A stretch of 64,000 bases of DNA from Okamejei kenojei. Its lineage: Eukaryota. The notes under the pieces are model-generated. The model was not told the DNA's origin. It worked only from the letters and a program-made list of their open reading frames with translations, and made no database searches. A program made the translations under genes and the position numbers. This document shows positions 12,680-26,324 of the stretch, one piece after another; the first letter of the stretch is position 1; each line of letters opens with the position of its first letter. Location of the stretch: the NCBI GenBank assembly GCA_035221665.1, contig CM069160.1:30628001-30692000 (forward strand), in the 5' to 3' direction.

Positions 12680-13544
12680 GTTACTCAGCGGGTCAGGCTG
12701 CATCTCTGGAGAAAAGGAATCGGTGAGGTTTCAGGTCGGAATCCTTCCTCACACTGCAACCATTTTTCCCCAGTGCGGACCCGAAACATCAGCTATTCCT
12801 TTTCTCCAAGTCTGTGGAATTCTCTGCCGTCTGTGGAACTCCCTGCCTCAGAGGGCGGTGGAGGCAGGTTCTCTGGATGCTTTCAAGAGAGAGCTGGATA
12901 GGGCTCTTAAAGATAGCGGTCAGGGGATATGAGGAGAAGGCAGGAACGGGGTACTGATTGGGGATGATCAGCCATTATCACAATGAATGGCGGTGCTGGC
13001 TCGAAGGGCCGAGTGACCTACTCCTGCACCTCTTGTCTATTGTCCAGAGATGCTGCCTGACACACTGAGATATCCCAGCACATGATGCCTGGCACTTGGT
13101 GTCTATCTATGAAAGGCAAAGATTAAGTGGATGTGGAAAGGATGTGTCCACTGGTGGGAGAGTCTTGGACCAGAGACCATAGCCTCAGATTTAAAGGGCA
13201 CTCCTTTAGAAAGGATGCGAGCAGGGCCGTCTTAAAGCATTGGCACGCTGGGCAGTTGCCCCGGGCCCCACGAATATAGGGGCCGCACGCTAATCTATGT
13301 ATTGTAGAATGTTATTGTAGAACAAGAAACCGGAGAAGAACATCGCAAGTGCATGATGCAGTATTTGAAGGCATGTAGTAGCCATTTAGCTTAACTCAGT
13401 ATGTTAGAACTATAAGTTCTGAAGAAGGGTTTCAGTCCAAAACGTTGCCTATTTCCTTCGCTCCATAGATGCTGCCTCACCGCTGAGTTTCTCCAGCATT
13501 TTTGTTTCCGATTTTATAGCATTTGCAGTTCCTTCTTAAGCATG
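12680..13544 (-). repeat. Inverted segmental duplication, copy 1 (reverse complement of 25379-26324)
   Basis: Colinear reverse-complement match across several unrelated TE junctions, e.g. catgatgcctggcacttggtgtctatctatgaaaggcaaag vs ctttgcctttcatagatagacaccaagtgccaggcatcatg. Confidence 0.95.
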
Positions 13545-13865
13545 ATCACATAAAAAACATCATAATTTATATATTTTAAAAAAAAACCCACAATACTTAA
13601 GTTAAAAATACAGAGTAAAAAATGATCAATGTCGTACAACGAGACAACGATACCAGTGTCTCCACAACTGGGATTCGTAGCGTGTAGTGCTAACCCTTAT
13701 GTTTGTCAAGGCCACAATAAGCACATTTTTAGAGTCATTTATCCTGCAAATGAATTTATACATGTGGTGTCTTAGGATAGCTTCTAAAGTACTGACTCCT
13801 GCAGCAACAAACATATTACTGGCACTACACAACTTTGGTTGCCTTAGCAGTGTTCTCATGGCTGC
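13545..13865 (-). mobile_element. RTE-X-like LINE 3' fragment
   Basis: [45 protein letters not shown]...SQLWRHWYRCL resembles the RTE-X ORF C-terminus. Confidence 0.6.
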
Positions 13866-14828
13866 AATAATCTTGATGAGGGAATTGAATGCAACTTCTC
13901 CAAGTTTGCGGATGACACGAAGCTGGGGGGCAGTGTTAGCTGTGAGGAGGATGCTAGGAGACTGCAAGGTGACTTAGATAGGGTGGGCAAATCCATGGCA
14001 GATGCAGTATAATGTGGATAAATGTGAGGTTATCCACGTTGGTGGCAAAAACAGGAAAGTAGACTATTATCTGAATGGTGGCCGATTAGGAAAAGGGGAG
14101 ATGCAACGAGACCTGGGTGTCATGGTACACCAGTCATTGACAGTAGGCATGCAGGTGCAGCAGGCTGTGAAGAAAGTGAATGGTATGTTAGCTTTCATAG
14201 CAAAAGGATTTGAGTATAGGGGCAGGGAGGTCCTACTGCAGTTGTACAGGGTCTTGGTGAGGCCACACCTGGAGTATTGCGTACAGTTTTGGTCTCCTAA
14301 TCTGAGGAAAGACATTCTTGCCATAGAGGGAGTACAGAGAAGGTTCACCAGACTGATTCCTGGGATGCCAGGACTTTCATATGAAGAAAGACTGGATAGA
14401 CTCGGCTTGTACTCGCTAGAATTTAGAAGATTGAGGGGGGAGCTTATAGAAACTTACAAACATTTTAAGGGGTTGGACAGGCTGGATACAGGAAGATTAT
14501 TCCCGATGTTGGGGAAGTCGAGAACAAAGGGTCACAGTCTAAGGATAAGGGGGAAGTCTTTTAGGACCGAGATGAGAAAAACATTTTTCACACAGACAGT
14601 GGTGAGTCTGTGGAATTCTCTGCCACAGTAGGTAGTTGAGGCCATTTAATTGGATATAGTTAAGAGGGAGTTAGATGTGGCCCTTGTGGCTAAAGGGATC
14701 AGGAGGTATGGAGAGAAGGCAGGTACAGGATACTGAGTTGGACGATCAGCCATGATCATATTGAATGGTGGTACAGGCTCGAAGGGCCGAATGGCCTACT
14801 CCTGCACCTATTTTCTATGTTTCTATGT
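13866..14828 (+). mobile_element. CR1/HER1 LINE RT C-terminal half, largely intact
   Basis: [46 protein letters not shown]; (ttctatg)n tail. Confidence 0.95.
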
Positions 14829-15361
14829 GCATTTGACAAATAGACTTGACTTGTCTTGACCGCCACTGGACCATCCCCATCCCCTCCGCAGTGCTATCCC
14901 CCCCACCCACCCCAGTGCTATCTCCCCCCCCCCCCCCCATCGGTCAGGGGGCGGCCAGAGATGTCGGGAGTCAGACGGGAGCCGTATCCCCAGGCCCACA
15001 GGCAACGGGGAGAAGCAGCGCTAAATCCAGCTCAACTCTGCCTGTCTCACCGGGTTAACCTACAGCCCTGCTTGGACTGACGGGAACGGAAGGCCCAGCC
15101 TTACAGCCCATGGCTGCCGAGAGTTCTTATCGCTAGTGACCTTTGACAAATCCCATGATTCCTTGTGTTTTTCGGAATACCCGACTCGCTTATTGGAGGA
15201 ACAGCACCTCATATTTCATATGGGTAGCTTACAATGTTGAATTCCCCAAGGTTATGTAACTTCTCCTGTACCCCCCTCTCCCGTTTTCCCCCTCCCTCCT
15301 CCCTTGTCACTTAACCCATTCCACACTTGACCACATTGCATCCTGCATTGTCTCATTGTTT

Positions 15362-15466
15362 GTAAGGTAGACTAAAGTGCTGGAGAAACTCTGCGGGTGC
15401 AGCAGCATCTCTGGCGAGAAGGAAACAGGCAACGTGTCGGGCCAAAACCCTTCTTCAGACTGATGT

Positions 15467-15501
<35 letters not shown>

Positions 15502-23700: not shown

Positions 23701-24299
23701 AAAAAAAAAAAAAAATGTGCTTGCTTGCTTGCTCACGTTTGGCAGGTAACTGCTGTTTCGGGGATTATGGTTCCAAGTTGTCTTTCCTTCTGCAGATGGC
23801 TTTCACAACTTTACCCGATGATGATAGACAAGTTCGCAAGTTATAGGAGTTGAATCAGGCCATTCGGCCCATCGAGTCCACTCCACCATTCAATCATGGT
23901 CGATCTCTGCCTCCGAATCCCATTTTCCTGCCTTAGACAATAGGCGCAGGAGTAGGCCGTTAGGCCCTTCAAGCCAGCAGCGCCATTCAATGTGATCATG
24001 GCTGATCATCCCCAATCATCCCCAACCCGTTCCTGCCTCCTTCCCATTTCTCCTGACACCGCTATCTTTAAGAGCTCTATCTAACTCTCTTGAAAGCATC
24101 CAGAGAACTGGCCTTTGTCGCCTTCTGAGGCAGAGAATTTCACAGACTCACAACTCTCTGTGTCAAAAAGTTTTTCCTCGTCTCCGTTCTAAATGGCTTA
24201 CCCCTTATTCTTAAACTGTAGCCCCTGGTTCTGGACTCCCCCCAACATCGGGAACATGTTTCCTGCCTCTAGCATGTCCAAACCCATTAATAATTCTCC

Positions 24300-24870
24300 C
24301 CATGATCCCTTGACGGTTTGTCAAGGAGGACTCTCTCTAACTTCTGCAAGTACACAGTAGAGAGCTTGCTGACCGGTTGCATCGTGGCTTGGTTCGGCAA
24401 CTTGAGCGCGCTGGAGAGGAAAAGACTACAAAAAGTAGTAAGCACTGCCCAGTCCATCATCGGCTCTGACCTTCCTTCCATCGAGGGGATTTATCGCAGT
24501 CGCTGCCTCAAAAAGGCTGGCAGCATCAGCAAGGACCCACACCATCCTGGTCCACACACTCTACTCCTTCAGGTAGAAAGTACAGGAGCCTGAAGACTGC
24601 AATGACCAGGTTCAGGAATAGATACTTCCCCACAGACATCAGGCTATTAAACCTGGCTCGGACAAAACTCTGATCATTCATAACCCATTATCTGTTATTT
24701 GCACTTTATCAGTTTATTTATTCATGTGTGTATGTATTTATATAATGATATATGGACACACTGATCTGTTTTGTAGTAAATGCCTACTATGTTCTGTTGT
24801 GCTGATGCAAAGCAAGAATTTAATTGTCCTATCAGGGACACAGGACAATAAACTCACTTGAACTTGAAAC
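24300..24870 (+). mobile_element. Rex1/Babar-type LINE 3' fragment
   Basis: YTVESLLTGCIVAWFGNLS..RLQKVV..RCLKKA; (cttgaa)n tail. Confidence 0.85.
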
Positions 24871-24975
24871 CTGTTCTAATTAAGAATTTGTCTATCTCTG
24901 CCTTAAAAATATCCACTGTCTTGGCAATGAGTTCCACAGATTAACTACCCTCTGACAAAATAAGTCCCTCCTTGC

Positions 24976-25553
24976 TGTAGTGACATATTGTTATTTCCTT
25001 TCACTTTAAGTCACTTTAATTGAAGACATGGGATCAGAAGATAATCAATACACACTCCCGAGCTCTCCACGAGACATGCAATGTCGTAGAAAGATAAATC
25101 TTCCAAACACGGTCTTTTGATTGATAGTTCCTTTATTATAATAGTAAAAACAGTAAGATCCAAGCTTCTTTTTGTCTAAGTGCATTTTAATCTTTCTCGT
25201 GGTCATACTCGTGCATGGTTGAAAGCTATGACCTCTCCCCCATGCTTCTTCAAACTAAACTAACTTCTAGCGAGTCTGCGCGAGAATCCCAGCCGCAAAC
25301 ATGCCTCGGACCACGTATAAACCCCACCCACATCATTTCAGGCAGATAAAATTTAAAGGTAACTGGTTATAGTTCTAACATGTTTAAGAAGGAACTGCAG
25401 ATGCTGTAAAATCACAGGGAAACAAAAATGCTGGAGAAACTCAGCGGTGAGGCAGCATCTATCGAGCGAAGGAAATGGGCAACGTTTTGGACTGAAACCC
25501 TTCTTCGGAACTTATAGTTCTAACATACTGAGTTAAGCTAAATGGCTACTACA
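24976..25553 (-). mobile_element. Solo LTR (TGTAGT...ACTACA) with 5-bp TSD CTTGC, carrying a Penelope-derived insertion
   Basis: cttgc at 24971-24975 and 25554-25558; inverted termini; tttatt (minus-strand AATAAA) near 25133. Confidence 0.8.
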
Positions 25554-26324
25554 CTTGCATCCAGGGTTGCCTTAACAAAGTAGTGCGCTGGGGCCCCCAC
25601 ACTTCCAGTTTCTTCATGCCTTCAAATACTGCATCATGCACTTGCGATGTTCTTCTCCGGTTTCTTGGTCTACAATAACATTCTACAATACATAGATTAG
25701 CGTGCGGCCCCTATATTCGTGGGGCCCGGGGCAACTGCCCAGCGTGCCAATGCTTTAAGACGGCCCTGCTCGCATCCTTTCTAAAGGAGTGCCCTTTAAA
25801 TCAGAGGCTATGGTCTCTGGTCCAAGACTCTCCCACCAGTGGAAACATCCTTTCCACATCCACTTAATCTTTGCCTTTCATAGATAGACACCAAGTGCCA
25901 GGCATCATGTGCTGGGATATCTCAGTCTGTCAGGCAGCATCTCTGGACAATAGACAATAGGTGCAGGAGTAGGACATTCGGCCCTTCAAGCCAGCACCGC
26001 CATTCAATGTGATAATGGCTGGTCATCCCCAATCAGTACCCCGTTCCTGCCTTCTCCTCATATCCCCTGACTCTGCTATCTTTAAGAGCCCTATCCAGCT
26101 CTCTCTTGAAAGCATCCAGAGAACCTGCCTCCACCGCCCTCTGAGGCAGAGAGTTCCACAGATGGCAGAGAATTCCACAGACTTGGAGAAAAGGAATAGC
26201 TGACGTTTCGGGTCCGAACCTTTCTTCACACTGGGGAAAAAAGGTTGCAGTGTGAGGAAGGGTTCCGACCTGAAACCTCACCGATTCCTTTTCTCCAGAG
26301 ATGCTGCCTGACCCGCTGAGTAAC
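25379..26324 (+). repeat. Inverted segmental duplication, copy 2 (longer, ancestral-like)
   Basis: Reverse complement of 12680-13544, plus ~62-bp and ~12-bp segments missing from copy 1. Confidence 0.95.
25562..25768. mobile_element. hAT-type MITE
   Basis: TIRs cagggttgccttaa / ttaagacggccctg; 8-bp TSD cttgcatc (25554-25561) / ctcgcatc (25769-25776). Confidence 0.8.

Follow-up and report, generated by a model that had tools for sequence, protein, structure and literature searches.

It has been described in several systems that nearby DNA can be copied into a new place in inverted orientation or that inverted copies come to flank exons. Local inverted copy-and-paste is a recognized class of rearrangement (PMC7025897), and at yeast breaks short fold-back inversions of 5-34 bp have been reported (PMC11724301). 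In the rotifer Adineta vaga, host DNA has been found captured between the pLTRs of Penelope elements, and a palindrome at the 5' junction together with an end at the pLTR tip are described as hallmarks of Penelope insertion (PMC3846280, PMC8557442). Inverted Alu pairs represent intronic inverted repeats that flank exons and can pair in the pre-mRNA (PMC13019027, PMC2533698).

The locus studied here, in a window of 64,000 bp from the skate Okamejei kenojei, has something in common with each of these. As far as the cited parts of PMC7025897 and PMC11724301 go, it resembles local two-jump templated insertions and fold-back inversions in having a nearby donor, inverted orientation and a fold-back at one junction, and shares with them the lack of a target-site duplication and an apparent loss of target DNA; unlike them, it is a germ-line and old event with both junctions in pLTR sequence, one of them at the exact 3' tip. 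With the Adineta vaga captures (PMC3846280) it shares a 3' pLTR, a palindrome at the 5' junction and about 1 kb of non-element DNA, whereas those captures have target-site duplications and occupy new chromosomal places, and the skate block has no such duplication and a donor 12 kb away. Compared with the Alu pairs, the skate arms are longer (0.87 kb) and enclose a loop of 11.8 kb with three exons; neither the exon skipping nor the editing associated with Alu pairs (PMC13019027, PMC2533698, as far as described there) was seen among the skate contigs listed.

An inverted block in a butyrophilin gene

The host gene has an intact reading frame of 487 aa with the architecture IgV-IgC-TM-B30.2. Counterparts are known from other skates, the product being 89.5% identical to XP_032903246.1 of Amblyraja radiata and 89.1% identical to XP_055521754.1 of Leucoraja erinacea (both butyrophilin subfamily 1 member A1-like). 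All exons are on the forward strand: a likely non-coding, CpG-rich first exon (10568-10770, its start taken from the extent of a transcript contig, with a donor site after 10770), the signal-peptide exon with the start codon (17364-17423), the IgV exon (20765-21112; Pfam V-set, E 4e-12), the IgC exon (22562-22846; Pfam C2-set_3, E 1e-20), the transmembrane (TM) exon (26723-26842), two 27-bp exons (30291-30317 and 31033-31059) and the B30.2 (PRY-SPRY) exon (32742-33340). Two sequencing runs, X6 and X8, contain contigs in which exons are joined across introns and were for this reason taken as transcript data; their record labels are '?' and 'RNA? (probably DNA)', and none of the runs listed is on record as RNA. 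The exons for the signal peptide, IgV and IgC lie between the two arms, as had been proposed, and since these contigs join IgV, IgC and TM directly, the stretch from IgV to TM holds no extra exon.

The inverted duplication claimed in the earlier note is real. Copy 1 (12679-13544, forward strand), likely in the first intron, aligns with the reverse complement of copy 2 (25379-26325, reverse strand) in the intron between IgC and TM, and 843 of the 866 aligned bases are identical (97.3%). The 23 substitutions comprise 13 transitions and 10 transversions. No perfect tract exceeds 134 bp; by simple arithmetic, 23 changes placed at random would leave a tract of about this length, and gene conversion between the arms was therefore rejected. 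In a self-BLAST of the 64 kb window the block pair ranked second by score among the repeat alignments, and it was the strongest inverted pair within the butyrophilin gene, where 48 inverted repeat alignments of at least 150 bp were found. There are no assembly gaps within positions 1-41179.

Both arms keep the order pLTR, CR1, older fragment, MITE, pLTR and are colinear across these junctions, in agreement with the view that one block was duplicated and that the elements did not insert independently. The block starts at a short quasi-palindrome inside the outer arm of a head-to-head pLTR pair (26184-26365, unstranded; copy 1 part 12679-12808), which in copy 2 runs on beyond 26325. Inserted in a pLTR arm is a LINE 3' end (25947-26183, reverse strand; about 12809-13043 in copy 1), presumably of CR1 type, with about 20 further matches in the window. 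The MITE with its target-site repeats occupies 25554-25776 on the reverse strand (MITE proper 25562-25768) and is truncated in copy 1 (13222-13373); its 14-bp terminal inverted repeats are imperfect and its target-site repeats agree at 7 of 8 bases; from the 8-bp length of the latter we take it to be a hAT element. The region around 25530-25900 has almost no further match within the window.

The four gaps between the arms, of 12, 2, 63 and 4 bp, are without exception absences from copy 1. Of the losses named before, the one of about 12 bp was found, but the large one is 63 bp (25554-25616 of copy 2) and does not abut the block end: it takes away the MITE's right end together with the target-site repeat there and stops about 40 bp before the terminal pLTR. 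Nor was an LTR element found at that end, the last part being a second Penelope-type pLTR. In copy 1 this pLTR spans 13416-13541 (forward strand), its 3' tip forming the right end of the block, and beyond the tip 2-3 more bases match the flank of the donor. In the donor it lies at 25367-25526 (reverse strand) within a 15-bp target-site duplication (25367-25381 and 25512-25526). In both copies this pLTR has a damaged hammerhead-like core; seven matches to the core pattern were found, six of them in pLTR copies. Pfam and Rfam gave no hit to a GIY-YIG Penelope-like element or a hammerhead motif, and Rfam returned only sub-threshold miRNA-like hairpins.

Donor, copy and age

That copy 1 is the derived one had been concluded from its deletions. 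This polarity holds, but it is decided by the 15-bp target-site duplication, which straddles the end of copy 2 (the outer repeat has 12 of its 15 bases outside the block) and thus identifies copy 2 as the donor. The pLTR arm that carries on past the block end in copy 2 points the same way; the deletions, all four of them in copy 1, are weaker evidence (p 0.125). When 22 substitutions were checked against other repeat copies, the derived state was in copy 1 for 11 and in copy 2 for 5, and 6 could not be polarised.

Misassembly is unlikely, because each copy has its own mutations and the left junction of copy 1 is present at single-copy depth in another individual. The latter comes from run X5, a different sample in which 9 of 1969 bases differ from the window. 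A 118-base contig of this run matches the window with no difference across the junction and at a base specific to copy 1, and has a depth of 34.8 compared with 26-32 in contigs of single-copy exons; it reaches 30 bases into the block (the bridging rule being 31) and 46 bases past the join of LINE and filler. Among the contigs listed none covered the right junction. For the run of a relative, X11, no piece of the copy 1 junction was among those listed, which is not evidence of absence. The arms have diverged by 2.7%, about six times the allelic difference. This divergence is similar to the distance of Okamejei kenojei from a related species.

Routes to the inverted copy

The two ends of the block are both in pLTR sequence. 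The right end is the pLTR 3' tip, and the left end is a fold-back hairpin (12663-12702, unstranded) that is absent from the donor; in it, 16 filler bases (12663-12678) nearly repeat, in inverted orientation, the first bases of the block. The hairpin gave DNA fold z values of -4.2 and -5.1, with none of 200 shuffles equally stable, against +0.3 for the donor. Copy 1 is flanked by truncated, mutually unrelated repeats: on the left a LINE-like 3' piece (12420-12662, reverse strand; second copy at 5582-5700, 88%) and on the right the end of a multi-copy repeat ORF with its cut 3' flank (13545-13850, reverse strand), of which the first 60 bases are 83% A+T. Pfam named no family for the right-flank ORF and the element bodies, and the one homologue of this ORF, P0127, gave hypothetical Atlas clusters only and an RVT_1 lead (0.89). 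No target-site duplication of at least 8 bp was found within 1.3 kb round copy 1, and three other pLTR insertions of the same subtype have target-site duplications of 11, 14 and 15 bp.

Nearby DNA copied from 11.8 kb away with the donor left intact, a fold-back and no target-site duplication are the marks of template switching, and on balance we favour DNA template switching, seeded at pLTRs, as the source of a local templated insertion that likely happened once and is likely without function. A broken end in intron 1 would have invaded the donor at the pLTR, and about 950 bases would then have been copied; at a short palindrome the new strand would have turned back on itself before being rejoined with loss of some target DNA, after which the arms drifted to 2.7%. 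The last 28 bases of the block contain 3 substitutions, the other 838 contain 20 (p about 0.03 in a post hoc test), an excess that fits a block tip derived from a pLTR already at the target; the presence of such a pLTR before the insertion is a guess. What counts against template switching is that the pLTR-tip right end and the palindromic left end are both Penelope hallmarks: by a rough count, a right end within about 3 bases of the pLTR tip would have a chance of about 0.7%.

These two features are what a Penelope reverse transcriptase would leave if it had copied a read-through intron RNA ending in pLTR, starting at the pLTR 3' tip, proceeding for about 950 bases upstream, self-priming on the palindrome and joining by microhomology. 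The block would then be a local pLTR-driven retro-duplication, in which Penelope dropped a piece of host intron in inverted orientation 12 kb off in a vertebrate gene; we consider this possible but doubtful, both as a route and as a description of the event. The right end is where further insertions of the same subtype stop, and the fold-back is at the far end from the tip, which is the polarity that the Penelope route needs. The target is rich in A+T, as preferred by an anole Penelope endonuclease (PMC11167929), and one Adineta insertion combines a palindrome at its 5' end with microhomology and lacks a target-site duplication (PMC3846280). In the window itself there are a GIY-YIG-like element body (Atlas lead, 0.96; PF01541 on 23% of the cluster members) and 29 pLTR loci, seven of them scored head-to-head. 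However, a landing site 12 kb from the donor would be very unlikely if Penelope did not copy locally, antisense transcription of the gene in the germ line would be required, the different truncated repeats on the two sides of copy 1 imply a loss of target DNA, and the target-site duplication, usual though not obligatory in the material of PMC3846280, is absent.

Two further explanations have very little probability. The adjoining LINE insertion might have captured the block, its cDNA having switched template to the gene's own intron RNA or DNA. The block does adjoin the truncated end of the LINE-like piece at 12662, in an orientation that fits copying of sense pre-mRNA, but no target-site duplication was found to flank LINE and block together, and the pLTR-tip end and the fold-back filler would be left unexplained. 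The remaining explanation is that the pair is a relic of an inverted paralogue duplication, as the earlier note had considered, or else a dispersed composite repeat or a misassembly. Butyrophilin and TRIM genes do form multi-copy clusters in rays and sharks; against this, similarity ends at both block ends, with no mirrored exon and no resemblance of unique flanks past the block, the donor was built up where it stands, the derived changes of the arms are independent, and another sample has the left junction of copy 1.

Possible effects on the gene and meaning

The functions proposed for the inverted pair are weakly supported. It is likely that both arms are in one pre-mRNA, judging from the extents of the transcript contigs: the X8 contig has 203 bases 5' of the signal exon that are not among the pieces listed inside 12330-17363. 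An RNA duplex as suggested before is physically possible. With -1724 kcal/mol the arm duplex was the strongest of eight computed, and the nearest inverted partner of the middle of copy 1 is at least 10.9 kb off. The transitions lean towards G-U-compatible changes, with 10:3 in the block (p 0.09) and 9:0 in the pair of CR1 copies that surrounds IgV. In comparison, 16 other pairs gave 127:120 and a polarised control across the gene gave 20:19; a gene-wide strand bias was not found to be the source. That the arms work as a duplex causing ectodomain skipping, back-splicing or A-to-I editing at a meaningful level is nevertheless improbable. The lean of the block alone is not significant relative to the other pairs (p 0.15), and the 10 transversions and the 63-bp gap have persisted and were not purged. 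The distances from the arms to the nearest splice sites are 1.9, 3.8, 2.5 and 0.4 kb, and the loop between the arms is 11.8 kb, whereas in edited human Alus the nearest inverted partner averages 682 bp in the same intron and about 2 kb across introns (PMC2533698), and the work on loop-out skipping, in the part of PMC13019027 drawn on here, dealt with single exons within 5 kb and found a weak link to stability. A joint of exon 1 to TM would encode a 29-residue out-of-frame peptide from an upstream ATG. Runs X6 and X8 each gave one contig with an unbroken IgV-IgC-TM order; such contigs drop rare forms. Among the contigs listed for these runs only full-length ones were present, and the tables of joints (21346 of them beyond those listed), loose ends, depth and change spectrum were swamped by repeat copies and carry no information on editing or inversion.

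Recombination between the arms, with a segregating 12-13 kb inversion allele that switches the receptor off, is highly improbable. Inverted repeats with 97% identity close together are formally a substrate for inversion, and at the alpha-globin locus recombination with a match of less than 50 bp has been seen (PMC2583991). The longest perfect tract of the arms is, however, under the roughly 200-500 bp of uninterrupted identity associated with efficient recombination; in mouse cells recombination fell 20-fold when the uninterrupted identity was shortened from 232 to 134 bp, and for human meiosis the estimates lie at 300-500 bp (all PMC2583991, in the part cited). The arms also differ some six times more than alleles do, and the exon order is intact in the two transcript-type runs.

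Since a full-length transcript is still made, the block is likely an ordinary accident. With the gene intact as well, a single intronic duplication of this type has little consequence. A role of the duplex in regulating a surface immune receptor would matter, but the current data do not show regulation. The Penelope route, if true, would be notable, because host-DNA capture by pLTRs has been described in a rotifer; a literature search confined to transduction wording found no paper on such capture. The block anatomy, with a pLTR tip at one end and a fold-back at the other, can be counted genome-wide. On the Penelope route, and with pLTRs about every 2 kb as in the window, such copies would abound in skate genomes, each of them giving rise to a long inverted repeat inside a gene.

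The inverted pair and its donor

The segment at 12679-13544, probably in the first intron of the butyrophilin gene (copy 1), is an inverted counterpart of 25379-26325 in the IgC-TM intron (copy 2). Self-BLAST and alignment within the window gave 843 identical bases among 866 aligned, with 13 transitions and 10 transversions, in agreement with the pair reported in an earlier note (12680-13544 and 25379-26324). The alignment traverses five repeat pieces with their order kept, and the middle of the block, around 25530-25900, has almost no further match within the window. As that note had claimed, the block is thus a single copied unit rather than a set of independent insertions. 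At all four gaps (12, 2, 63 and 4 bp) the bases are missing from copy 1. The 63 bp loss (donor 25554-25616; after 13373) stops at the outer edge of the 8 bp target-site repeat of a MITE (25562-25768), and is possibly an aborted transposase cut.

Copy 2 was assembled in situ through nested insertions. Its terminal Penelope-type repeat (pLTR, 25367-25526) has a 15 bp target-site duplication, the outer repeat of which reaches 12 bases beyond the block; the MITE retains both ends and the 8 bp repeat, and the other pLTR arm extends beyond 26325. These features confirm the proposal that copy 1, which is cut at both ends and flanked by two unrelated truncated repeats, is the derived one. Other copies of the repeats in the window served to polarise 22 substitutions (one adjoining a gap was left out): 11 were derived in copy 1, five in copy 2 and six were unresolved.

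Derived changes in both arms are not expected from an assembly artefact. The sequencing run X5, from another individual, sample and study, showed 9 differences from the window over 1969 bases (seven of eight listed pieces; one repeat-derived piece was dropped). Its 118-base contig spans 12591-12708 with 0 differences, including a copy-1-specific base, at a depth of 34.8 versus 26-32 for exon contigs. Among the pieces listed only the left junction is covered, and because the contig extends 30 bases inside the block, one base short of the bridging rule, this support is good but not formal. Together, the contig and the derived changes make misassembly unlikely. At 2.7%, the arms have diverged roughly six times as far as alleles do (0.46%), nearly matching the 2.6% (38/1490 bases; four of seven listed records) that separates the window from a related species (X11). 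Copy 1 is old; it is probably common, if not fixed.

Junctions and origin of copy 1

The right end of copy 1 lies in a pLTR (13416-13541), at most 3 bases from the 3' tip, at which other insertions of that subtype also end. At the left end 16 added bases fold back onto the block start (z -4.2 and -5.1 vs +0.3 for the donor). The target is A+T-rich; no target-site duplication was found flanking copy 1, and three other insertions of the subtype have duplications of 11-15 bp. The pLTR label is provisional and rests on a minimal hammerhead-like core retained in 6 of the window's copies and on an attached body resembling GIY-YIG proteins; Pfam and Rfam returned no name for the repeat. The CR1, hAT and LINE labels of block and flank repeats are likewise presumed. 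The pLTR pieces occupy 29 loci (about 3870 bases), several lying head-to-head or in 66 bp tandem arrays (16343-16541, 16927-17089). Broken Penelope-like bodies lie at 15310-16251, 37503-39453 and 57607-59466, the latter two mutually inverted (82%, many gaps).

Two routes fit the block, a DNA template switch and Penelope reverse transcription. On anatomy alone the latter would be preferred: a reverse transcriptase that used a read-through RNA as template, beginning at its pLTR tip, would produce a local retro-duplication, and the end at the tip, the palindromic left end and the A+T richness of the target agree with Penelope habits described in PMC3846280, PMC8557442, PMC11167929 and PMC4209133. 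However, a retro-copy 12 kb from its source is not expected unless the element copies locally; we regard this origin as rather unlikely. Among the papers searched, none combined Penelope with transduction. We lean slightly towards DNA template switching at the pLTR, in which a broken end would invade the donor at its pLTR, copy 950 bases, fold back and then rejoin. Template switching accounts for the nearby donor, for the lack of a target-site repeat and for flanks that do not match. Within the block the final 28 bases carry 3 substitutions versus 20 in the 838 others (p about 0.03, post hoc), as though the tip came from a pLTR pre-existing at the target. Short fold-backs at DNA breaks and local inverted copies are on record in PMC11724301 and PMC7025897, respectively. 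The suggestion of a relic of an inverted butyrophilin paralogue was not borne out, no mirrored exon or flank being found. As for the inversion polymorphism that the note proposed, the longest perfect tract between the arms is 134 bp, the level at which, according to a passage of PMC2583991, recombination fell 20-fold in mouse cells.

The host gene and possible pairing of the arms

The organism is a skate. Behind a likely non-coding first exon (10568-10770), the coding exons of the gene (signal, 17364-17423; IgV, 20765-21112; IgC, 22562-22846; TM, 26723-26842; two of 27 bp, 30291-30317 and 31033-31059; B30.2, 32742-33340) specify an intact protein of 487 aa with the order IgV-IgC-TM-B30.2. It shares 89% identity with the butyrophilin 1A1-like proteins of Leucoraja and Amblyraja; among the papers searched, none dealt with butyrophilins of cartilaginous fish. 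Some 72% of the gene's length has matches among other repeats of the window, and the gene contains 48 inverted alignments of at least 150 bp. An out-of-frame ATG at the end of the likely first exon (10763-10770) would open a short ORF overlapping the signal-peptide start. The repeat adjoining copy 1 (13545-13850) is 93% identical to an unnamed protein (P0127), and a contig of transcript-type run X6 matches 13647-13763 with 0 differences at a depth of 178 versus 27.6 for the gene. A RING/B-box TRIM gene begins its coding sequence with an exon at 46230-46655, on the same strand and 13 kb downstream of the butyrophilin. The repeats at 1-9000, 37400-39500 and 40300-46200 are rich in single-base indels, with three N gaps in a long low-complexity tract; assembly quality there looks lower than in 12330-27000.

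A contig of transcript-type run X8 has 203 bases upstream of the signal exon. They have no listing within 12330-17363, though long enough to rank among the longest pieces, and their length agrees with the CpG-rich exon ending at 10770; the pre-mRNA therefore likely contains both arms. The earlier note envisaged a duplex looping out the ectodomain exons. The block duplex was indeed the strongest of eight computed, but in both X6 and X8 a single contig, about 1780 bases long, connects IgV, IgC and TM. As contigs drop rare forms, this shows that ectodomain skipping is not dominant, and no more. The loop measures 11.8 kb, and the distances given for edited Alu pairs in a passage of PMC2533698 are far shorter. 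A better candidate for an effect of RNA pairing is a young, gapless, inverted CR1-type pair (18083-18517 and 21869-22303; 435 bp, 96.6%), which would loop out the IgV exon only (3.35 kb); as this exon has 348 bp, skipping it leaves the frame intact.

Transitions in the block were G-U-compatible on the sense strand by 10 to 3 (p 0.09), and in the CR1-type pair by 9 to 0 (p 0.004). For comparison, 16 other pairs together showed 127 to 120, and a polarised control showed 20 to 19. The block alone did not differ from the other pairs (p 0.15); block and CR1-type pair together did (p 0.009, post hoc). Selection for pairing should purge transversions, and these persist (10 in the block, six in the CR1-type pair). 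The lean is an unexplained hint that runs counter to a reading of no function. The block is a real, old, local inverted duplication, consists of transposon-derived intron DNA and belongs to an already known class of event.
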